24,674 bases of DNA, taken from Methanosuratincolales archaeon (GTDB taxonomy: Archaea; Thermoproteota; Methanomethylicia; Methanomethylicales; Methanomethylicaceae). The position numbers were made by a program, and so were the translations under genes. Below, one piece after another: positions 1,216 to 12,017 of this stretch. Numbering within the stretch: position 1 is the first letter of the stretch; each line of letters opens with the position of its first letter. Location: the NCBI GenBank assembly GCA_937930465.1, contig CALGKV010000079.1, positions 1-24,674 on the forward strand, written 5' to 3'. The notes below the pieces were generated by a model. The model was given only the letters and a program-made list of their open reading frames with translations. It did not search any database and was not told where the DNA came from.

Positions 1216-1403
1216 TCGGTAATGGATTCAGCGATAGGAAAATCACATAACGCAGGTAGATCCGGCGGCTTCTGAACCAGATTCCCCCGAAAGATTAGTG
1301 AGCCGAGGGTTATTGCCGAGAGCAGCAAATGAATCAATTGGAACTGTTGACGGTTTCCTGTGCGATGAAAATTCCAAGTGGCAAGAGGTCAAGCAGAATT
1401 GCC

Positions 1404-1417
1404 CAAAAAGCTTAATA
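1404..1417 (+). promoter_or_regulatory. Putative BRE+TATA promoter of the tkt-aro-phe-tyr operon
   Basis: CAAAAAG-CTTAATA resembles a purine-rich BRE plus TATA, predicting a TSS near 1440 and a ~210 nt 5' leader. Confidence 0.5.
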
Positions 1418-1457
1418 CGCTTGGCCACAGTGATAACCTTACAAAACGGTGGTTAAA

Positions 1458-1481
1458 GTGAGCCAATTCCAATATCTATAA
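1458..1481 (+). CDS. Candidate leader peptide MSQFQYL (uORF)
   Basis: GTG AGC CAA TTC CAA TAT CTA TAA, preceded by GGTGG (1448-1452) at 5 nt spacing. Confidence 0.3.
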   Translation: MSQFQYL

Positions 1482-1549
1482 CACGACTGGTCCCTTCTTG
1501 TTTAGACCAGTCGGTGCTCTCAGGCTCTGAGAGACTGAGTCCGGTTTTT
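1482..1549 (+). promoter_or_regulatory. Structured leader: alternative hairpins followed by T5
   Basis: Perfect 9-bp stem 1484-1492/1505-1513, perfect 7-bp stem 1517-1523/1527-1533, alternative pairing 1505-1511/1534-1541, and TTTTT at 1545-1549. Confidence 0.45.
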
Positions 1550-1650
1550 GGTATAGACGGAGTAAAGACGAAGGGCTCGGAAAAGACATTTGCACACAAG
1601 CAACACGCGGACACTGCGCCAGTGCGCCCTGATCTTGAGGTGCTTCATGT

Positions 1651-2508
1651 ATGAGCGGCACGGTCGAGCTGGCAGACCTAAAGCACTCTACCGACGTCCA
1701 GAAGGTGAAAGAGAGGATAAGGCAAGTCCAGCGCTCGCTCGTCGAGATGACCTCGTCTATGGGGGTGCACATCGGCTCCTCGCTCTCGTGCCTTGAGATC
1801 ATAGCTACGCTATACTTCCTGAAGATGCGGCACGCTCCGCATAGGCCACAGTGGCGGGAAAGGGACAAATTCATACTCAGCAAGGGGCACGCCGCGCCGG
1901 TGCTCTATGCTGTATTGGCAGAGGCGGGCTACTTCCCGAAGGAGGAGCTCCGAACCCTAAAGCGAATCAACTCCCGGCTGCAGGGCCACCCAGACCTGAG
2001 GACGCCAGGAGTTGACGCCCCATCAGGCTCGCTGGGTCAGGGGATCTCGATAGGCATCGGCATGGCTATGGCGGCGAAGATGCGCGGGAGCAGGAGCAGG
2101 GTCTACGTTCTTGTCGGCGATGGCGAGTGCGATGAGGGTCAGGTCTGGGAGTCGCTCATGACGGCAGCGCACCTCAGGCTGGACAACCTAGTCCTAATAA
2201 TAGACAGGAATGGCTGGCAGCTTGACGACAGGACGGAGGAGGTGAAGAGGAAGGTGCCGCTAAGGAGCAAGCTTGAGAGCTTCGGGTGGGAGACATACTC
2301 GATAAACGGGCACGACGTGGAGAAGATAGTCGAGGTCCTGGACGCCGCGGAGAGGGCGGAGCAGCCCGTGGCAATAATCGCCCACACAAAGAAGGGGAAG
2401 GGGATCTCTTTCCTAGAGGACTCGAACAAGGGGCACAAGCTGAAGCTGAGCGAGGACGAGTACCTGGCAGCGATCAAGGAGCTGGAGATGAGGGCAAAGT
2501 GCGCGTAG
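1651..2508 (+). CDS. tkt: Transketolase, N-terminal (TPP-binding) subunit
   Basis: HIGSSLS, DKFILSKGHAAP, LQGHPD, GSLGQG and the TPP motif GDGECDEGQVWE...IDRN. SD GAGGTG at 1637-1642. Confidence 0.95.
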   Translation: MSGTVELADLKHSTDVQKVKERIRQVQRSLVEMTSSMGVHIGSSLSCLEIIATLYFLKMRHAPHRPQWRERDKFILSKGHAAPVLYAVLAEAGYFPKEELRTLKRINSRLQGHPDLRTPGVDAPSGSLGQGISIGIGMAMAAKMRGSRSRVYVLVGDGECDEGQVWESLMTAAHLRLDNLVLIIDRNGWQLDDRTEEVKRKVPLRSKLESFGWETYSINGHDVEKIVEVLDAAERAEQPVAIIAHTKKGKGISFLEDSNKGHKLKLSEDEYLAAIKELEMRAKCA

Positions 2509-3410
2509 CGTTTGGGGAGGGGCTGCTCGAGCTGGGCAGCGAGAACGAGGACCTGGTGGTGCTGACGGCTGATGTCGCAAGGCCCACCCATGTAATAGGC
2601 TTCGGCGAGCGCTTCCCACACAGGTTCCTGGACGTCGGGATCGCGGAGCAGGACATGGTTGACATTGCTGCGGGGCTGGCCCTCAGCGAGAAGGTGCCCG
2701 TTGCAGTGGCGTTCGCTCCGTTCATGATGAGGGCATGGGAGCAGGTCAGGAGCACTATCGCAAGGTGCAGCCTGAACGTGAAGCTAGTGGGCACCCATGC
2801 CGGGCTTTCGGCGTCGGACGAGGGGGCGTCGCACCAGTCGCTAGAGGATGTTGCGCTGATGCGGGTGCTCCCCAACATGACCGTGGTCGTGCCAGGCGAT
2901 AGGGAGGAAGTCAAGGAGGCCACGCGTGCGATCGTCGAGAGCAAGGGGCCTGCCTACATGAGGATAGGCAGGGACGAGGATGCAAATTTCCTTCATGAAG
3001 GGTTCAGGCTAGGGAGGGCTACCGTGCTAAGAGATGGCTGCGACGTTGCCGTATTCTCCAACGGCTACATCACGTCGGAGGTGCTGGCTGCAGCTGAGGG
3101 GGCGCCCGTTGACGCAATGGTGGTCCATGTTCCGACTGTGAAGCCGCTGGACTCGGACACGGTAATCTCTGCTGTTAGGAGGACCGGGGCTGCCGTATGT
3201 GTGGAAGAGCACAGCATAATCGGGGGACTGGGCAGTGCCGTCTCGGAGCTGGTCTCCACAGAGTATCCGGTACACATAAGGAGGATGGGCGTCAGCGACA
3301 CTTTCGGCGAGTCCGGCACCTACAGGGAACTCCTGGATAAGCACCGCCTCAGCGCACCACACATCAGGGAGGCGATGGTAGAGGCAGCAAAAAGGAGGGG
3401 CAAGAGATGA
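2499..3410 (+). CDS. tkt: Transketolase, C-terminal subunit, 303 aa
   Basis: RVAFGEGL, DVGIAEQDMV, GTHAGLSASDEGASHQSLED, PAYMRIGR, VEEHSIIGGLGS. Start placed at GTG 2499, overlapping the upstream stop; the ORF-track 2286 start is a shadow extension. Confidence 0.93.
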   Translation: MRVAFGEGLLELGSENEDLVVLTADVARPTHVIGFGERFPHRFLDVGIAEQDMVDIAAGLALSEKVPVAVAFAPFMMRAWEQVRSTIARCSLNVKLVGTHAGLSASDEGASHQSLEDVALMRVLPNMTVVVPGDREEVKEATRAIVESKGPAYMRIGRDEDANFLHEGFRLGRATVLRDGCDVAVFSNGYITSEVLAAAEGAPVDAMVVHVPTVKPLDSDTVISAVRRTGAAVCVEEHSIIGGLGSAVSELVSTEYPVHIRRMGVSDTFGESGTYRELLDKHRLSAPHIREAMVEAAKRRGKR

Positions 3411-4387
3411 TCATTTTGCTTGAATTGGAATCAAAGCAACTGGAGGAAGCGCTCAGGGGAAGGTTTCGGAAGGTGAGGTACGGGGGAAAGGTAGCCTATG
3501 TCGCAACCCGGCAGGTCCCGGCAGAGATCCTAGACAGGCTGCACGGGGCAAGGATCGTTGACACAGGTAAACCGTACCAGCTGGCGAGCAGGGTCCTCCT
3601 GGAAGACGGCTCAAGGGTCAGGATAGGGGACGTGGAGTTCGGGGGCAAGGAGATCCAAGTCTGTGCTGGCCCTTGCGCTATCGAGAGCAGATCCCAGCTG
3701 CTGGAGGCGGCCCAGGCAGTAAAGGGCGCAGGGGCTTCGGTGCTCCGGGGAGGGGCGTTCAAGCCCAGGACTTCGCCGTACTCCTTCCAGGGCCTCGGAG
3801 AGGAGGGGTTGAGGCTTTTGAGGGAGGTGGCGGACGAGGTCGGCATGCCTGTTGTCACAGAGGCAACGACCCCAGAGCAGGTCCCTCTTGTTTCGGAGCA
3901 CTCTGACGCCATACAGATCGGGGCGAGGAACATGCAGAACTTCGAGCTCCTCAAGGCTGCGGGCAGATCCGGGAAACCCGTTCTGCTGAAGAGGGGGGCG
4001 TCCTCTACGATTGAGGAGTGGATCCTCGCAGCCGAGTACATACTTCTCGAAGGCAACTGGAACGTGATCCTTTGCGAGAGGGGGATCAAAAGCTTCGACA
4101 GCTCGACAAGGAATGTTCTGGACGTTGCAGCGATTGCGCTAGCGAAGGGGCTCACGCACCTGCCCGTCATCGCCGACCCGAGTCACGCAACAGGGAGGAG
4201 GGATCTGATCGCACCGGCTGCTATGGCTGCAGTTGCCGCAGGCGCGGACGGGCTCATCGTAGAGGTCCATCCCCGACCGGATGAGGCCCTTAGCGATGGG
4301 CCGCAGTCCCTCGATCCGAGTGGGTTCAGGAAGATGATGTCCGAGGTCGCCAAGGTCGCGAAGGCAACTGGAAGGGGTCTGGGTTGA
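3407..4387 (+). CDS. aroF: Type I-beta DAHP (DAH7P) synthase with short N-terminal ACT/ferredoxin-like extension
   Basis: AGPCAIES, RGGAFKPRTSPYSFQG, QIGARNMQN, LKRG, CERG, DPSH, EVHP. Confidence 0.95.
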   Translation: MIILLELESKQLEEALRGRFRKVRYGGKVAYVATRQVPAEILDRLHGARIVDTGKPYQLASRVLLEDGSRVRIGDVEFGGKEIQVCAGPCAIESRSQLLEAAQAVKGAGASVLRGGAFKPRTSPYSFQGLGEEGLRLLREVADEVGMPVVTEATTPEQVPLVSEHSDAIQIGARNMQNFELLKAAGRSGKPVLLKRGASSTIEEWILAAEYILLEGNWNVILCERGIKSFDSSTRNVLDVAAIALAKGLTHLPVIADPSHATGRRDLIAPAAMAAVAAGADGLIVEVHPRPDEALSDGPQSLDPSGFRKMMSEVAKVAKATGRGLG

Positions 4388-5472
4388 GGAAGATCGCAGT
4401 AAGTTGTGGGTGCCTCGAATACCCAGTCCTGATCGGTGCAGGGCTTCTTGGCACGGTCGGTGGAGCAGCCAAGGGACTCGCAGGGGACGGGAAGGTGGTG
4501 ATCATCACAGTACCTCCGGTCAGGGAGCTTTACCTTGAGAGCGTGGCAAGCAGCATGGACATTGAAGGGATCGAGCCTGTTGTCATAACCGTCCCGGACG
4601 GTGAGGAAGCCAAGACTCCCGAGACTTACCTATATGTTGTGGGCAGGATGCTGGACGCAGGGGCGGGCAGGGACTCGCTGGTCCTTTCCCTTGGAGGGGG
4701 GTGTGCAGGGGACCTCGCGGGGTTCGTAGCCTCGACATACATGCGCGGGGTCTCACTGGCGCACATCCCGACCACACTTCTAGCGCAGGTGGACAGCAGC
4801 ATAGGCGGCAAGAGCGCACTGAACCACCCAAGGGCTAAGAATCTAATAGGGAGCTTCCACCAGCCGAAGCTCGTCATCTCAGACACCCGGGTGCTCGCTA
4901 CATTGCCGACAAAAGAGCTGCGCTGCGGTCTAGCAGAGGTACTCAAGTACGGAGCCATACTTGACGGCGGACTCTTCCGGATTATCGAGCAGAGAGCTGG
5001 CGACATGCTGGCGCTAGAAGAAGGCGTGCTTGAGGATGTGATATGCAGATCGGCGGAGATCAAAGCCAGGGTCGTTTCGCTGGACGAAAAGGACAGGGGC
5101 GAGAGGATGCTGCTCAACTTCGGGCACACCGTTGGGCATGCCATAGAGGCGGCGACCTGCTACCGAAATTACAGCCACGGGGAGGCGGTAGCAATAGGGA
5201 TGTTGGCAGAGGCTAGGATCGCTGCGCAGCTCGGAATGATAAGCGATGGAACCGTGGACAGGATTGAGGCACTTGCCTCGCGGCTGGGGCTCCCGACGAG
5301 GGTCAAGGGTGTAACGGCGGAGGGGCTGATCGGGATCATGAAAGGCGACAAGAAAGCGGAGAGAGGAGAGATTAGGTTCGCGCTCCCGGACGCGATCGGT
5401 TCAGGCGCGGTGGTCGAGGTCAAGGACAGGGCATTGATAGAAGAGGCGATCAAGGGGGTGCTCGGCGATTAG
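4384..5472 (+). CDS. aroB: 3-dehydroquinate synthase
   Basis: GGGCAGDLAGF, PTTLLAQVDSSIGGK, KNLIG, AEVLKY, LNFGHTVGHAIE, HGEAVAIG. TTG start overlaps the aroF stop (TTGA). Confidence 0.96.
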   Translation: MRKIAVSCGCLEYPVLIGAGLLGTVGGAAKGLAGDGKVVIITVPPVRELYLESVASSMDIEGIEPVVITVPDGEEAKTPETYLYVVGRMLDAGAGRDSLVLSLGGGCAGDLAGFVASTYMRGVSLAHIPTTLLAQVDSSIGGKSALNHPRAKNLIGSFHQPKLVISDTRVLATLPTKELRCGLAEVLKYGAILDGGLFRIIEQRAGDMLALEEGVLEDVICRSAEIKARVVSLDEKDRGERMLLNFGHTVGHAIEAATCYRNYSHGEAVAIGMLAEARIAAQLGMISDGTVDRIEALASRLGLPTRVKGVTAEGLIGIMKGDKKAERGEIRFALPDAIGSGAVVEVKDRALIEEAIKGVLGD

Positions 5473-6154
5473 CGGCAGACCCTACAGGATATGCGCATCT
5501 GTGGTGGGCAAGGACGAGACGGAGATCGCAAGGGCAGCCCTGTCAGCCGAGGAGCTTGGCGCAGACCTCGTGGAGCTGAGGCTCGACACAGTTGAGGGGC
5601 TTGACCGAGAGAAGGTCAGGTCGGTTTTCAGGCTTGCTGCTGGCGTAGGCTTGCCAAAGATTGCGACGGTGATGCCTAGGAGCATATTTGGTGGCTTTGA
5701 AGGAAGCGCCGAGGAGCTCGGAGAGCTGCTACTCGAGGCTTCCAACCGTGCCGAATACGTCGACGTTGGGATTGAGTTGCTTGAAGGGCACGAAGGGATT
5801 TTAGAAAAGCTCTCGCAAAGGGCGAAAGTTGTGCTTTCCTGGCATGCAGACCGATTGCTATCGATCGATGAGATGAGGAGCTTCGTAAGGTCTTGGCGCA
5901 GGTGCAGCGTCTACAAGATTGCAATGCCCGCCAAGAGTGCCAGTGATAACTTGGTGGCTTTGCAAGGGTGCCTGGCTCTGGAGGGATTCAGGAGGGTCGT
6001 CTTCTGCTACGGCAGAGAAGGCATTCCTTCGAGGGTGATCTCTCCGGTCTTCGGATCGGAGTGGGCTTATGCCGCGCTCCGGAAGGGGCAGGAAACGGCG
6101 CCTGGGCAGATCGACATCGATATCCTCAGACGGATCAGGGGGGCGTTCGCTTGA
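5468..6154 (+). CDS. aroD: Type I 3-dehydroquinate dehydratase (start uncertain: ATT 5468 proposed, GTG 5501 is the first canonical codon)
   Basis: RICASV N-terminal strand, VELRLD, YVDV, SWH, YKIA (Schiff-base Lys), SRV, APGQ. Confidence 0.9.
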   Translation: MSGRPYRICASVVGKDETEIARAALSAEELGADLVELRLDTVEGLDREKVRSVFRLAAGVGLPKIATVMPRSIFGGFEGSAEELGELLLEASNRAEYVDVGIELLEGHEGILEKLSQRAKVVLSWHADRLLSIDEMRSFVRSWRRCSVYKIAMPAKSASDNLVALQGCLALEGFRRVVFCYGREGIPSRVISPVFGSEWAYAALRKGQETAPGQIDIDILRRIRGAFA

Positions 6155-7005
6155 CGACTAGCAGAACAAGGCTCTTCTGCCTGCTGGGGGATCCGGTCGA
6201 TCATTCGATCAGCCCACAGATCTTCACCAGGGCATTCGAGGCTTGCGGGATGGATGCGGCATATTTGGCTTTCAGAGTCCCTGGCAGTTCACTAGGCAAG
6301 GCGATCGCAGGCCTGAGGGCGCTCGGCGTGGCTGGGTGCAACGTGACGGTCCCGCACAAGATAGCAGTGATGAGCCATCTCGACTCATTGGACAGGGCAG
6401 CAATGGAGATCGGCGCGGCGAACGTGATCAAGATGGAAAATGGCATGGCTGTTGGCTACAATACGGACGGCGATGGGGCATTGATGGCTCTCAGAAGGAG
6501 CGATCTCTCGGGCAAGGTTGTTGCCTTGGTGGGCTACGGCGGCGCAGCCAGGGGGGTCGCCTATGCCATTGCATCATCAAAGGATCCGGGGGAGGTGGTG
6601 ATTTCAGGGAGGGATCGCGCGAAGGCAGAGTCGCTCGCCCAGCGGCTGGCGTCCCTCTTCGCGGTCAAGAGCAGATCCGTTAGCATTGAAGGGCTCAAGG
6701 AAGCCGCCCCAGATGTTCTGGTGAACGCGACCCCTCTTGGGATGAAGCCTTGGGTTGACAAATCCCCTGTGGATGCTGATGTCCTGCGCGCAGGGATGGT
6801 CGTGTTCGACCTTGTATACAACCCGACCGAAACCAGGCTGATCAAGGAGGCCAGGGCAATTGGCTGCACGACCATCGGGGGGTTGGACATGCTGGTAGGG
6901 CAGGCAGCTGCAGCTTTCGAGATCTGGACTGGAGAGAGGGCACCGTTGGAGGAGATGGAGAAGGCAGCATCGGAAGCCGTTGCAAAGGGGGGTGCAGGCG
7001 AATGA
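6151..7005 (+). CDS. aroE: Shikimate dehydrogenase, 284 aa
   Basis: LGDPVDHSISP, NVTVPHK, YNTDG, VNATPLGM, DLVYNP, GLDMLVGQA. TTG 6151 overlaps the aroD stop. Confidence 0.96.
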   Translation: MTTSRTRLFCLLGDPVDHSISPQIFTRAFEACGMDAAYLAFRVPGSSLGKAIAGLRALGVAGCNVTVPHKIAVMSHLDSLDRAAMEIGAANVIKMENGMAVGYNTDGDGALMALRRSDLSGKVVALVGYGGAARGVAYAIASSKDPGEVVISGRDRAKAESLAQRLASLFAVKSRSVSIEGLKEAAPDVLVNATPLGMKPWVDKSPVDADVLRAGMVVFDLVYNPTETRLIKEARAIGCTTIGGLDMLVGQAAAAFEIWTGERAPLEEMEKAASEAVAKGGAGE

Positions 7006-7868
7006 GGGGGACAGGCACGTCCTACGGCGCAGCAACAATAGTCAACGCGATGCCATCCGGTTTCGGCGGGGCGATCGGGGTCTGGCTCAAGGCAGTCGCT
7101 GAGGTGGAGATCACTGAAGACCCTGCGGTCGAGGCTGTTGCGGCAGACCAGGAGGTCGAGGATCTCTCTCTGATTTCCGAGTCATTCAAGGCTGTTACAT
7201 GTAGGTACGGGCTCGGCTGCGGGGCTAGGATCACCGTTCGCAGCGAGATACCCCCTGCAAGGGGGATGAAGAGCTCGAGCGCAGTATCGAATGCAGTAGT
7301 TCTGGCTACGCTGGACGCGCTCGGCATAGATTGCGGGGCGATGGAGGCTGTCCAGATGGGCGTGCAGGCCTCAATGAGGGCAGGCGTGACCGCCACTGGC
7401 GCGTTCGATGACTCCTGCGCAAGCCTCTTTGGCGGCGTGTTCTTAACAGACAACGCGGGGATGAAGGTCCTCAGGAGCTGGGATGCCGAGGAGCTGACAG
7501 CGCTATTCCTGGTCCCCGAGGAGAGGAGGTATTCGGGGAAGGTCGACTCGGAGCTTCTCCGGAGCTATGCGCGGGTGTCACTCATGGCTTTCAACGAGGC
7601 GATCGAGGGGAGAATCTGGCAGGCAATGCTCATCAATGGGATGGCAATGGCCCACGTCTTCGGGTTCGACGCCGGACCGATCCTGGAGGCGGTAAGGGAG
7701 GGGGCGGTATCGGCAGGCCTTTGCGGCAAGGGCCCGGCCATATGCGCGGTGACCAGGCCGGAATACGAGGGAGGGATCCTTGACTGCTGGAGGGGCAGAG
7801 GCTGCAAAACTATCAGGACCAAGATCAGGGGCTGCGCCGTATGCGGGGTGGACGAGCTTGGCAGGTAG
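7002..7868 (+). CDS. aroK: Archaeal (GHMP-family) shikimate kinase
   Basis: YGAATIVNA, SEIPPARGMKSSSA, TGAFDDSCAS, LCGKGPA. Confidence 0.93.
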   Translation: MRGTGTSYGAATIVNAMPSGFGGAIGVWLKAVAEVEITEDPAVEAVAADQEVEDLSLISESFKAVTCRYGLGCGARITVRSEIPPARGMKSSSAVSNAVVLATLDALGIDCGAMEAVQMGVQASMRAGVTATGAFDDSCASLFGGVFLTDNAGMKVLRSWDAEELTALFLVPEERRYSGKVDSELLRSYARVSLMAFNEAIEGRIWQAMLINGMAMAHVFGFDAGPILEAVREGAVSAGLCGKGPAICAVTRPEYEGGILDCWRGRGCKTIRTKIRGCAVCGVDELGR

Positions 7869-9156
7869 CAGGGCATTCGCGGTCGTGAGGGAGAGCGTGA
7901 TCGATGGGGCTGTCAGGGCACCCCCTTCAAAGAGTTTCACACAGAGGGCGGTGGCGTGCGCATTGATATCGGAGGGCAGGACCGAAATTTTGGGCCCTTC
8001 TACCTCGGACGACGGCAGGGTGGCAGCCAGGATCGCAAAAAGCTTGGGAGCGAGGATCAAGACAGGAAATGGGGGGTGGCTAGTGGATCCCCCGTCCAGA
8101 CCCGAGGCCCCTGAAGAGGTAGTAGACTGCGGCGGGTCGGCGACCTCAATGAGGATCTTCACCGCGATCGCGGCGCTTTCGGAGGGGGCGACCGTACTCA
8201 CAGGGGACGAGTCCCTCAGGAGGCGCCCTGTCGGCGAGCTTTTGGAGGCGATGAATGCGCTAGGCGCGAGGTGCTTCTCGACCAAGCACAACGGCCTACC
8301 TCCCGTAGTAGTGGAGGGGGGAGGGTTCAGGGGAGGAGATGTGTCGATCCGCGGGGACGTGAGCTCGCAGTACATCTCAGCGCTGATAGTTGCCTGCACA
8401 AGGGGGGATTCAGGGACCTCGATACAGGTGATCGGGAACCTGGAATCGTCAGACTATGTCAGGATGAGCATAGACGTCCTGAGGCAGTTCGGAGGGGCAG
8501 CTTTCCCAGACTTTGACGCCAAGAGATTCATAATCCCTGGAAGGCAGTCACTCAAGGGTTGCAGATTCGTCGTCGAGGGGGACTACTCCTCTGCTGCGTT
8601 CATAATCGCGGCTGGTGCGCTTGCAGGAAACGCCTCTGTCACCGGGCTCAACCCTAGAACGTCCCAGGGGGACCGGAGGCTGCTGGAAATAATCGGCAGG
8701 ATGGGCGGCACCGTGTCGGTCGAGGGCGGCGCCGTCACTTCGCTCCGCGATAGGCTCAGGGGGATCGAGGTAGACTGCTCGGAGGTGCCAGACCTAGTGC
8801 CGGTTCTGGGAGTGCTGGCCACTCAGGCAGAGGGGGTAACAGTTCTAAGGAAGACCGGCCGGCTCAGGATAAAGGAGAGCGACAGGGTGGAGGGCCTGGT
8901 GAGTATGATAAACAAGTTTGGGGGGATAGCCCGAGTAGATGGGCAGGACATCATAATAAAAGGCCCTACGCGCATGAACGGCACAGAGATCGATCCTAAG
9001 GGGGACCACAGGCTAGCAATGGCCGCTGCTGTAGCGGGGCTCATCGCAAAGGGCGAGACTGTGATCCATAATGCTGGGTGCGTTTCGAAGAGCTACCCCA
9101 GTTTCTTCTCGGATCTGAAAAGCCTAGGGGCGGGCGTAGAGGTGAGGATCGGATGA
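7858..9156 (+). CDS. aroA: 3-phosphoshikimate 1-carboxyvinyltransferase (EPSP synthase), 432 aa
   Basis: PPSKS, LRRRP, SSQYISAL, DYSSA, PDLVP, RIKESDR, DHRLAMA, KSYPSF. TTG 7858 has SD GGGGTG 7 nt upstream. Confidence 0.96.
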   Translation: MAGSRAFAVVRESVIDGAVRAPPSKSFTQRAVACALISEGRTEILGPSTSDDGRVAARIAKSLGARIKTGNGGWLVDPPSRPEAPEEVVDCGGSATSMRIFTAIAALSEGATVLTGDESLRRRPVGELLEAMNALGARCFSTKHNGLPPVVVEGGGFRGGDVSIRGDVSSQYISALIVACTRGDSGTSIQVIGNLESSDYVRMSIDVLRQFGGAAFPDFDAKRFIIPGRQSLKGCRFVVEGDYSSAAFIIAAGALAGNASVTGLNPRTSQGDRRLLEIIGRMGGTVSVEGGAVTSLRDRLRGIEVDCSEVPDLVPVLGVLATQAEGVTVLRKTGRLRIKESDRVEGLVSMINKFGGIARVDGQDIIIKGPTRMNGTEIDPKGDHRLAMAAAVAGLIAKGETVIHNAGCVSKSYPSFFSDLKSLGAGVEVRIG

Positions 9157-10256
9157 GCTTTGGGTTCGGCAAGGAATTCAGGGTGACGGTCTTCGGGGAG
9201 TCCCACGGCACTTGTGTCGGGGCGGTCGTCGAGGGATGCCCTGCAGGGCTCCCTTTGGAAGAGGGGGACATACAGCGCGAGCTCGACAGGCGCAAGCCAG
9301 GCGGGCGGCACTCGAGTGCAAGGGGCGAGCCGGACAGGATCAGGCTGATCAGCGGCATATGCGGCGGCAGGACCAATGGCGGCCCGATCACGATGCTGGT
9401 GGAGAACGAAGATGTGGACTCTTCGTGGTACGAAGAGAACAGGCACCTCCCGAGACCGGGCCACTCGGACTTCCCAGCATATGTGAAGTACGGCGGCATG
9501 AACGACTACAGGGGAGGCGGGTTTTTCTCAGGAAGGATGACCGCGCCCCTTGTCATGGGAGGGGCGGTGGCGAAGAGGCTGCTCTCAACTTTAGGAGTCA
9601 AGGTCATCGGCCACATCGTGCAGATCGGGAGGATCAGGCTATTGGAGCAGGTGAGCGACCAGGCAATAGAGGCTGCAACTTTGAGAGGCGCAATATGCGC
9701 GGACACGGGAACCGCAAGGGAATTTGAGGGCGAGATCGACAGGGTTGCCAAGGAAGGCGATTCGGTCGGCGGGGTTGTCGAATGCAGGGTACTCAACTTG
9801 CCAACGGGAGTCGGGGAGCCCTTCTTCGATTCGGTTGAGAGCACCATAGCGCACGGGGTCTTCAGTATCCCCGGGGTAAAGGGGGTGGAGTTTGGAGCAG
9901 GGTTCGGCTTCGCATCGATGAGGGGATCAGAGGCAAACGATACCATCGTCGCCAGGGACGGCAAGTTTGAGACGGAGACGAACAGGTCTGGCGGGGTGCA
10001 GGGGGGTCTAACCACGGGTATGCCGCTCTTGTTCAGGGTCGCCGTGAAGCCAACGCCTTCAATAAGGAAGGAGCAGAGGACAGTCGACATGAGGACGATG
10101 CAGGAGGCGACCATAAAAGTAGGCGGCAGGCACGACCCGTGCATAGCGGTGAGGGCTGTCCCGGTGGTCGAGGCGGTCGCCGCGGTCTGCATTGCGGACC
10201 TGATGGCAAGGGACGGAAAGATACCGAGGAGGATTGGTGGTAAGATTGGGAATTGA
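9153..10256 (+). CDS. aroC: Chorismate synthase, 367 aa
   Basis: FGESHG, RRKPG, RPGHSD, GGVQGG, RHDPC. ATG 9153 has SD GAGGTGA and an ATGA overlap with aroA. Confidence 0.97.
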   Translation: MSFGFGKEFRVTVFGESHGTCVGAVVEGCPAGLPLEEGDIQRELDRRKPGGRHSSARGEPDRIRLISGICGGRTNGGPITMLVENEDVDSSWYEENRHLPRPGHSDFPAYVKYGGMNDYRGGGFFSGRMTAPLVMGGAVAKRLLSTLGVKVIGHIVQIGRIRLLEQVSDQAIEAATLRGAICADTGTAREFEGEIDRVAKEGDSVGGVVECRVLNLPTGVGEPFFDSVESTIAHGVFSIPGVKGVEFGAGFGFASMRGSEANDTIVARDGKFETETNRSGGVQGGLTTGMPLLFRVAVKPTPSIRKEQRTVDMRTMQEATIKVGGRHDPCIAVRAVPVVEAVAAVCIADLMARDGKIPRRIGGKIGN

Positions 10257-11304
10257 GGAGATCAGGAAAGAGATAGACAAGATAGACGAGGAGATAGTGA
10301 GACTGCTGAACGAGAGGGTGGCGGCGTGCAAGAAGGCAGGCGTAGCCAAGGGAGGGATCGATATATTTGACGTGGACCGCGAAAGGAGGGTCTTGGAGAG
10401 AGTCGCATCCAGATCCGAGGAGGCCCCTATTGAGGGGGTACGTGCGGTCTACAGGGAAGTCATCTCGATGTGCCGCAGGGTCCAGAGGCCGATCACAGTC
10501 GCTTTCTTGGGGCCTGAGGGAAGCTTCTCCCACGAGGTGGCTTCTAAGCACTTCGGAACATCCTCGAAGCTTCTGCCGAGCAGAAGGATAAGGAACATCT
10601 TCACAGAAGTCGATCTTGGGGGGGCGGACTTAGGGGTTGTGCCATTCGAGAACTCGATCGAGGGCGCTGTCAATGACACCTTGGACTGCTTCGTCGAGTA
10701 CCCGGTCTCGATAGTCGGCGAGGCCCTCTTCAGGATCAACCAGAACCTGATCGTGGACCCAGAGGTGACCGCGCTCAGCCAGATAGAGAGGGTCTATTCT
10801 CACCCTCAAGCGCTTGCCCAGTGCGACGGCTACATCACGAAGCACCTTAACGACAAGGAGATCGTCGTCACCGAGTCGACAGCCAGGGCCGTGGAGCACA
10901 TCCTGAGGGACCCGAAGGGGGCAGCCATCGGCAGCAAGGTGGCTGCAGAGCTCAACGATCTGAAGATCTTCGAGGCAGGTATCGAGGACTCGCCAAACAA
11001 CTACACAAGGTTCGTCGTGATAAAGAAGGGGGGTGTTGCCGAGGGAGGGAACAAGACATCGCTGATACTCTCAATAGATCACGTCCCCGGATCTCTGGCT
11101 GCGGTGCTTAACTGCTTTGCTAAGAACGGAATCAATGTGACCATGATACTCTCGAGGCCGCTCTACATGAAGCCATGGGAGTACCTCTTCTTCATTGATT
11201 TTGAAGGGAATCTAGGTGATGAGAAATGCAGGAATGCAATGGAGGAACTAAAGAAGAAGACGAGGTTCCTGAGGATACTAGGAAGTTACTCAGAGTTGCT
11301 GTGA
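10234..11304 (+). CDS. pheA: Chorismate mutase / prephenate dehydratase with ACT domain
   Basis: AroQ-type N-terminus (IRKEIDKIDEEIVRLLNER), LGPEGSFSH, PFENSIEG, SHPQALAQC, NYTRF, C-terminal ACT domain. Start could be TTG 10234, GTG 10237 or TTG 10246. Confidence 0.95.
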   Translation: MVVRLGIEEIRKEIDKIDEEIVRLLNERVAACKKAGVAKGGIDIFDVDRERRVLERVASRSEEAPIEGVRAVYREVISMCRRVQRPITVAFLGPEGSFSHEVASKHFGTSSKLLPSRRIRNIFTEVDLGGADLGVVPFENSIEGAVNDTLDCFVEYPVSIVGEALFRINQNLIVDPEVTALSQIERVYSHPQALAQCDGYITKHLNDKEIVVTESTARAVEHILRDPKGAAIGSKVAAELNDLKIFEAGIEDSPNNYTRFVVIKKGGVAEGGNKTSLILSIDHVPGSLAAVLNCFAKNGINVTMILSRPLYMKPWEYLFFIDFEGNLGDEKCRNAMEELKKKTRFLRILGSYSELL

Positions 11305-12017
11305 TTGGGACCGGGAAGATGGGGAGGTGCCTCTCCACACTGCTCAGGGATCAAGCCGATGTAACGCTGCACAGCAGGGATCTCAGGAAGGGAAGGGCGA
11401 TAGCCAAGAGGGTCGGGGTGTGCAGTTCAGAAATCAAAGCGATCTCGGAGAGCGACGTGGTGATAGCCACGATGCCGACCGGGGCAATCCCAGGATTCCT
11501 AGAGGAGTCTGCAGGAAGCATGCGCCCCGGCGCAGCCTTCGTAGATGTCTCGTCCGTTAAATGTGGAGTGGTAGAGGAGGTCCTAAAGAGGCTGCCGGAA
11601 TGGGTCGGGTACGTCAGCATCCATCCGCTCTTCACCTCGCCCAAGGTGAAGGAAAAGGACGTGGCATTCATCCCAGTCAGGGGCACGGCGAACGTTTATA
11701 GGTTCTTGGAAACCCTCTCGAGGTCAGGGATGCGCCTATTCGAGACTTCCTCCGAAGAGCACGATCGTGCCACAGCCATAACGCAGGTGCTCCACCACTT
11801 TGCGCTGCTCACGATGGATAAGGTGCTCCAAAGGCACATGAGTTCCTCGGAAAAATTCACGACTCACAGCCTTAGGAAGACGCTGGCAGTGATGAGGCTG
11901 GTCAAGGGCAACCGCGACACAGCGGTAATGATCCAAAGGCTGAACAAATTCGGGAAGAGCATCAGAATGGAGTACATAAAGGAAGCCGAGGCGCTGGACC
12001 GAGAGTTGTCAGATTGA
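11226..12017 (+). CDS. tyrA: Prephenate/arogenate dehydrogenase (TyrA family)
   Basis: Rossmann motif RVAVIGTGKMG, DVSSVK, HPLF, EEHDR, QVLHHF. Start uncertain (ATG 11226 vs GTG 11301). Confidence 0.88.
   Translation: MQECNGGTKEEDEVPEDTRKLLRVAVIGTGKMGRCLSTLLRDQADVTLHSRDLRKGRAIAKRVGVCSSEIKAISESDVVIATMPTGAIPGFLEESAGSMRPGAAFVDVSSVKCGVVEEVLKRLPEWVGYVSIHPLFTSPKVKEKDVAFIPVRGTANVYRFLETLSRSGMRLFETSSEEHDRATAITQVLHHFALLTMDKVLQRHMSSSEKFTTHSLRKTLAVMRLVKGNRDTAVMIQRLNKFGKSIRMEYIKEAEALDRELSD

Follow-up and report, generated by a model that had tools for sequence, protein, structure and literature searches.

The leader of the aromatic amino-acid operon of a Methanosuratincolales archaeon may be organised as an amino-acid-sensing switch, in which a ribosome waiting for phenylalanine or tyrosine would slip one base backwards out of a seven-codon reading frame and continue, in the -1 frame, as far as the start of the first gene, tktN, to whose translation the shift would be coupled. 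From its sequence organisation we give this -1 frameshift reading roughly even odds (about 0.5), while it is very probable, more broadly, that the leader contains some sort of translated, codon-specific sensor. The DNA analysed, hereafter the window, is a stretch of 24,674 nucleotides (contig CALGKV010000079.1, assembly GCA_937930465.1, forward strand). That its operon closes in pheA and tyrA had been proposed in an earlier reading from the sequence alone (the sequence-only reading), and Pfam matches bear this out, giving the order tktN-tktC-DAHPS-aroB-aroD-aroE-aroK-aroA-aroC-pheA(CM-PDT-ACT)-tyrA, with a transketolase split into tktN and tktC and a shikimate kinase of the GHMP type. The features on which the argument turns are as follows.

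1399 to 1417, forward strand: BRE/TATA-like promoter block TTGCCCAAAAAGCTTAATA, conserved in most of 20 leaders at a fixed distance, about 40 nt, ahead of the GTG.
1448 to 1452, forward strand: Shine-Dalgarno-like (SD) GGTGG, separated from the GTG by 5 nt and from the first P-site CAA by 11 nt.
1453 to 1457, forward strand: TTAAA spacer between GGTGG and GTG.
1458 to 1481, forward strand: zero-frame mini-ORF GTG AGC CAA TTC CAA TAT CTA TAA, encoding MSQFQYL.
1463 to 1469, forward strand: heptamer 1, C-CAA-UUC, proposed shift site, at which the P site would hold Gln-tRNA and the A site the Phe codon; -1 reading CCA AUU.
1469 to 1475, forward strand: heptamer 2, C-CAA-UAU, proposed shift site of the same kind, its A-site codon being that for Tyr; -1 reading CCA AUA.
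1457 to 1654, forward strand: -1 frame ORF (EPIPISITRLV...), closed upstream by TAA at 1454-1456 and ending in TGA at 1652-1654, which overlaps the tktN ATG.
1484 to 1513, forward strand: hairpin 1, stem CGACTGGTC (1484-1492) with GACCAGTCG (1505-1513), 9 bp and a 12-nt loop, candidate frameshift stimulator.
1517 to 1533, forward strand: hairpin 2, CTCTCAG-gct-CTGAGAG, genus-specific.
1545 to 1549, forward strand: T5 tract (GTT TTT) inside the -1 ORF, possibly an oligo-T termination signal for untranslated transcripts.
1637 to 1642, forward strand: SD of tktN itself, GAGGTG.
1651 to 1654, forward strand: ATGA overlap of the tktN start with the -1 ORF stop.
1651 to 12017, forward strand: the operon from tktN through aroC to pheA (10234-11304) and tyrA (11226-12017), by Pfam.

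The SD motif, its five-nucleotide spacing, the GTG-to-TAA frame and the hairpin 3' of it had all been described in the sequence-only reading, and direct inspection of the sequence agrees. Transcription is predicted to start near 1436-1441, from the usual archaeal spacing between TATA box and start site, which would give a 5' UTR of about 17-22 nt. An Rfam scan of positions 1216-1650 at E <= 1, T-box RF00230 included, returned nothing in the leader, nor did a scan for sigma-70 promoters and intrinsic terminators.

Conservation of the mini-ORF in relatives had been proposed as a check, together with the caveat that so short a frame could arise by chance. The SD and mini-ORF are kept upstream of tktN in 20 distinct Methanomethylicaceae leaders, at a distance of 75-193 nt, and the caveat thereby falls. 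In a DNA search of relatives, the approximately 42 nt holding SD and mini-ORF were about 90% identical across genera, with flanks that could not be aligned, and the core is identical at the nucleotide level, synonymous sites included. Scanning 185,579 species for the pattern yielded 21 stretches: 18 in Methanomethylicia-type MAGs, two bacterial matches without a nearby stop, and one truncated match labelled 'Desulfurococcales' that carries the cassette. This last lies at a contig end (L022, positions 100-200) and reads GGTGG followed by GTG ATC CAA TAC CAA TTC TAA (MIQYQF). The cassette is also present in the complete genomes of M. petrocarbonis LWZ-6 and M. verstraetei LCB70 of Methanosuratincola, both of which we take to be cultured. 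GGTGG and its spacing are invariant in all family members. Seven codons are found in 19 of the 20 leaders, and the stop, be it TAA, TAG or TGA, is never lost; codon 2 is AGC or ATC and codon 7 is CTA, CTC, CTT, CGT or ATT. In one genus the peptide is MSQYQFI, Phe and Tyr having changed places, and the swap is always concerted: the underlying exchanges of ATT and ATA are synonymous in the -1 frame and leave frame 0 with one Phe and one Tyr codon. These patterns support the mini-ORF as a real, conserved, SD-led feature in which the Phe and Tyr codons matter, its translation being predicted.

Overlooked in the sequence-only picture of the leader was a second, start-less reading frame that leads from the mini-ORF to tktN. 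Three-frame translation finds the -1 frame open from the mini-ORF to a stop overlapping or abutting the tktN start in all 20 leaders, with 2-6 stops in each of frames 0 and +1; against shuffled sequences this openness has P = 0.05-0.35 per leader and a summed log10 P of -18. In 14 of the 20 the stop lies at +1 of the tktN start (ATGA, GTGA or TTGA). Leader lengths within the genus (169, 169, 169, 169, 193 and 157) differ by multiples of three; the leader of 193 nt, from a Methanosuratincola sp. (L004, positions 940-1160), carries a 24-nt tandem duplication relative to those of 169 nt, with the -1 frame intact. The window's -1 ORF has 65 codons and its first canonical start, GTG at 1514, is not conserved; a conserved canonical start for this frame was not found in the 20 leaders, four of which (L006, L010, L011 and L014) have none whatever. 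Species with TktN proteins that are 95% identical share hardly any of the peptide encoded by the 3' half, and selection therefore acts on the openness of the frame and not on its product. Since the frame is closed upstream and is without a conserved canonical start, ribosomes would have to enter it non-canonically, inside the invariant core, which makes recoding and translational coupling the likely mechanism.

Relatives further afield show what such a frame can encode. Among other Methanomethylicia families and Bathyarchaeia-like genomes the -1 frame runs into a domain of about 95 residues, either free-standing or fused in frame to TktN. In the fusions (L060, L061, L062, L034, L105 and L136-L156) the N-terminal domain takes up about 100-130 residues and lacks a canonical start of its own; gene callers shorten these proteins, as in P0001, which is called at 270 aa where the open frame spans 343 aa. 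The domain aligns well (alignment A3) with the signature STLKFNAKxLKxLxLI, and its AlphaFold model (pLDDT 94) is a MarR/ArsR-like winged helix (wHTH) with MarR, SmtB and RosR as best Foldseek matches, a result that applies to the -1 ORF of these distant lineages and not to the window's 65-codon leader ORF. No solved structure exists for the family, which has 506 database relatives at E <= 1e-6, proteins of Thermococcales and Thermoplasmata among them, often called from internal or spurious starts.

Fifty distinct cassettes share one arrangement: an SD-like motif and an ATG or GTG, in the distant lineages too, then a few codons, then C-CAA followed by the sensor codon, with the wHTH ORF beginning exactly there in the -1 frame. 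The heptamers are single, tandem or 24-45 nt apart (as in L152, CGC CAA TAC ... CGC CAA TTT). The base before CAA is always C while the residue that it helps to encode varies (S, R, N, H, F, I, C or L), and Gln is always CAA, a minor codon in the window's genome (21% of Gln), as are CCA and ATT; ATC, which accounts for 46% of Ile codons in this genome, never occurs in the -1 frame of a cassette. Main-frame codons that lie after the first heptamer and ahead of the mini-ORF stop, some 400 in all, include no stop, and the pattern I-[RS]-[LI]-[ST] is conserved straight after the heptamer. Stops immediately 5' of CCA in L061/L085 and in L095 mean that entry must be at the heptamer itself. Canonical in-frame starts may occur further downstream in some lineages (e.g. 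TTG in L087).

Entry at this point might instead be by non-canonical initiation or re-initiation, with the -1 ORF starting at the near-cognate AUU (1466) or AUA (1472, or 1478 as AUAA over the stop). The SD-led mini-ORF would then be a uORF that competes with this start or delivers ribosomes to it, and its Phe and Tyr codons would tune the number of ribosomes that arrive there. Almost every aromatic cassette does have AUU or AUA here, and the codon that the mini-ORF stop overlaps is AUA, or in L012 and L065 UUG (as NUGA). We nonetheless consider this reading unlikely: the overlapping codon is UUA or CUA in several lineages, the ProRS-linked cassette (L099) reads C-CAA-CCA, its -1 frame offering ACC but neither AUU nor AUA, and the gap from SD to AUU or AUA is 13-19 nt. 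It also leaves the invariant C-CAA unexplained, and in lineages with long uORFs the main frame is open and conserved in its amino acids well before the uORF stop.

Within Methanosuratincola, a single-protein search found no close homologue of the free-standing wHTH, and a profile search yielded nothing closer than a distant subfamily, ahead of a sulfhydrogenase-like operon and without an amino-acid connection; the wHTH of G247 is absent from the relatives of G247. The window's family has lost the wHTH and retained frame continuity to the ATGA overlap. The distant member in the window's own genome (L130, positions 440-830, contig C24) precedes a sulfhydrogenase-like [NiFe] hydrogenase operon and is overlapped by an SD-led 9-codon ORF (MSKGVRLFC), relative to which it sits in the +1 frame; CUU-UUC, which recalls the CUU-U shift site of prfB, lies there within a conserved element, AAAGGTGT...CCTTTTC. 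This member may simply start at an in-frame GTG.

In the -1 shift reading, the codon facing the empty A site names the amino acid in short supply, and it can be compared with the genes that the cassettes adjoin. Tyr codons stand before a wHTH gene followed after 4 nt by TyrRS (L087, MESQYAYL...) and beside a divergent TyrRS (L095, MLNQYAYL...); a Phe codon (L075, MSRQF...FQY...) accompanies a divergent PheRS alpha subunit (PheS); and the sole cassette with C-CAA-CCA, a Pro codon, heads a wHTH that overlaps ProRS by ATGA. ADH synthase and dehydroquinate synthase II form the non-homologous archaeal entry to the aromatic pathway, and the cassette adjoining ADH synthase and dehydroquinate synthase II (DHQS-II) carries both Phe and Tyr (L152, ...RQY...RQF...). 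Two further Tyr cassettes neighbour a PaaK-like aryl-CoA ligase (L141, ..SQY..) and a beta-eliminating lyase that, judged by eye, has the look of a tyrosine phenol-lyase or tryptophanase (L065, MPRQY), and every TktN fusion carries Phe and/or Tyr in its cassette. The A-site codon hence matches the regulated supply for TyrRS twice, PheS, ProRS and two kinds of aro operon, as a hungry codon of the prfB sort would, in lineages that are related, such that cassette counts overstate their independence. Many free-standing wHTH copies have neighbours without an evident amino-acid link (histidine kinases, unknown proteins). In one Bathyarchaeia-like family (f69; L138, L143 and L145-L147) a Phe-type cassette, MSHQFD(C/Y), heads a free-standing wHTH; next, in the same orientation, comes the gene of a conserved protein of about 360 aa that matches nothing in Pfam or NCBIfam, and a DadD-like deaminase often lies divergently upstream.

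An invariant nucleotide core that extends to synonymous sites, near a DNA-binding domain encoded just downstream in other lineages, might be expected of an operator, the CCAATW repeats binding a protein on DNA or RNA (the wHTH itself, for instance) and the reading frames being incidental. This we regard as highly improbable. There is one exact copy per genome, near-matches are no commoner than in a reversed control, and Methanosuratincola, which has only the distant wHTH subfamily at the hydrogenase operon, lacks a close homologue to bind them; moreover, the arrangement of heptamers is variable, and maintenance of the stop, the SD and start, the open -1 frame and the Pro variant beside ProRS would go unexplained. 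The comparison with the reversed control was made for CCAATWCCAATW in five genomes.

Downstream of the mini-ORF, structure is kept where the -1 shift reading would place a stimulator. The core of hairpin 1 begins three bases after the mini-ORF stop, can be extended to 1481-1515 and lies inside the -1 ORF; in a within-genus alignment of seven species, compensatory changes occur at five of its nine pairs, with 98-100% of cells paired. Hairpins at this place have z <= -1.4 in 16 of 19 leaders, built from at least six unrelated stem sequences, and are weak or absent in the other three (L010, L016 and L040); the hairpin starts 4-9 nt past the last heptamer, with a spacer of 4-8 nt in most leaders. 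The leader folded as a whole gives z = -0.8, by which only local hairpins matter, and RNAalifold found no consensus across genera because loop lengths differ between them; support for the hairpins is accordingly taken from per-sequence z-scores and the within-genus alignment. Hairpin 2, with 90% of cells paired and two compensatory pairs in Methanosuratincola, was not found in other genera.

It is on these structures that classical leader-peptide attenuation, as suggested by the sequence-only reading, would depend, the position of the ribosome choosing between an antiterminator (A:B) and a terminator (B:C followed by T5). End-product codons in a short SD-led ORF, a conserved hairpin abutting its stop and a T5 tract at 1545-1549 of the window are what such a leader would offer, and yet we find the reading improbable, for several reasons. 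The alternative B:C 'terminator' helix has 71% of cells paired, and six of its seven pairs depart by unpaired cells only, changes that break the helix without compensation; no second, mutually exclusive helix is therefore maintained, and A:B alone is supported. The T5 tract occurs in four of seven Methanosuratincola leaders, is missing from L002, L006, L007 and the other genera, and lies inside a frame that is kept open, so that there is no conserved U-tract; archaeal intrinsic termination, in any case, needs no hairpins. Attenuation further offers no account of the start-less -1 ORF that is open to tktN in 20 of 20 leaders, nor any reason for the invariant C-CAA. What is supported of the earlier proposal is a conserved, SD-led mini-ORF whose Phe and Tyr codons matter, with sensor codons that match the neighbouring gene in relatives; transcription attenuation in the bacterial style is not supported.

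The -1 shift reading can be set out as a sequence of steps. Ribosomes would load at GGTGG and GTG and read Met-Ser-Gln. With ample Phe-tRNA and Tyr-tRNA they would complete MSQFQYL and terminate at 1479-1481; were Phe-tRNA scarce, the ribosome would wait with CAA and its Gln-tRNA in the P site while UUC stood in an empty A site, and were Tyr-tRNA scarce the same wait would occur two codons on, with UAU in the A site. Favoured by a hairpin that begins 5-8 nt further on and by the SD 11 nt upstream, the P-site tRNA would then slip one base back onto C-CA, bringing an Ile codon (AUU or AUA) into the A site and committing the ribosome to the -1 frame. The shifted ribosome would read the whole leader and stop on the ATGA overlap, coupling translation of tktN to the shift, with shielding of the nascent transcript from premature termination (e.g. 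at the T5 tract) probably a further effect, and the aro-pheA-tyrA operon would be raised whenever Phe or Tyr ran short. Frame continuity has been kept as far as the ATGA even though the wHTH has been lost, from which we infer that the arrival of the shifted ribosome at the tktN start is itself the output; the -1 slip, the response to tRNA charging and the action by coupling we infer likewise.

So read, the -1 shift accounts for the SD and start, the C-CAA, the ATT/ATA exchanges, the point of entry, the hairpin, the nearby zero-frame stop and the match between codon and gene. Slippage in the P site beside a vacant A site, under limitation for aminoacyl-tRNA, is an accepted route of -1 shifting (PMC8211752), and the leader shares two hallmarks of programmed -1 sites, an overlapping start-less -1 ORF and a downstream structure at a fitting distance. 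Against it, C-CAA-UUC and C-CAA-UAU are not slippery heptamers of the canonical X-XXY-YYZ form: once slipped to -1, Gln-tRNA(UUG) would keep pairing only at positions 1 and 3, with a central U:C mismatch, and the A-site tRNA could not re-pair.

The logic of the leader resembles that of prfB, antizyme, pheL/trpL and T-boxes, and it has the defining features of none of them. With prfB, the gene for bacterial release factor 2, which uses a +1 shift, it would share a short, SD-assisted zero-frame ORF with a nearby stop, and a shift prompted by slow A-site decoding when the reading factor is scarce, whose product relieves the scarcity; the differences are that the proposed shift is -1, occurs at a sense hungry codon (Phe, Tyr or Pro) instead of UGA and from C-CAA instead of CUU-U in the P site, that the system is archaeal, and that its output would be either a wHTH regulator or a leader ORF to which an operon is coupled. 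The leaders of pheL-pheA and trpL likewise place a mini-ORF with end-product codons before a biosynthetic operon and sense tRNA charging by ribosome pausing, as is proposed here; unlike them, this leader has no conserved mutually exclusive helices, has single codons in place of runs, overlaps a -1 ORF and probably acts on translation. In Firmicutes T-boxes, too, a 'specifier' codon of the leader corresponds to the amino acid that the regulated tRNA ligase attaches or the regulated biosynthetic operon makes; a T-box, however, is a structured RNA that binds uncharged tRNA, whereas here the ribosome would do the reading, and the leader has no Rfam match.

The only proven programmed -1 frameshift in archaea is that of fucA1 in Saccharolobus solfataricus (PMC8211752, PMC1616953). 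Like fucA1 and dnaX-type sites, the leader combines an overlap of 0 and -1 ORFs with a stem-loop 5-9 nt downstream and an SD-like element upstream; it departs from them in a heptamer that is not X-XXY-YYZ, in its proposed dependence on amino acids and in a site only 2-4 codons from the start. A further comparison is with Tar (TK0271), the Thermococcales activator of aromatic amino-acid genes, whose DNA binding is unaffected by Trp, Tyr or Phe; how their lack is sensed was left open, and most Crenarchaeota are without both Tar and TrpY (PMC6737238). Tar resembles the wHTH in being a small HTH regulator encoded by the first gene of an aro operon, before the transketolase, and differs in that the window's own family has lost the wHTH. 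Proteins of T. gammatolerans, T. litoralis and P. abyssi, species listed as having Tar homologues (PMC6737238), belong to the wHTH family, with no T. kodakarensis protein among those retrieved.

Beyond this one operon, the cassettes could tentatively be gathered into a widespread archaeal 'specifier-codon frameshift switch', a generalisation that we put slightly short of even odds, in which small MarR-like regulators need a -1 shift at C-CAA-XXX, where XXX encodes the amino acid that the adjoining tRNA ligase or biosynthetic operon handles, and which in Methanomethylicaceae would act directly on the aro-pheA-tyrA operon. The cassette family occurs in Thermoproteota, homologous proteins are known from Thermococcales and Thermoplasmata, and gene callers systematically mis-start or miss the regulator family and the TktN N-terminal domain in many archaeal genomes. 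The cassette makes testable and precise predictions, namely junction peptides and the effects of single-codon changes. To our knowledge archaea have no established sensor of tRNA charging that acts in cis, and the evidence presented here suggests a previously undescribed archaeal way of sensing amino-acid shortage. If true, it would stand beside T-boxes and attenuators as their ribosome-based counterpart, and could answer how archaea such as Thermococcus sense a lack of Phe, Tyr or Trp.
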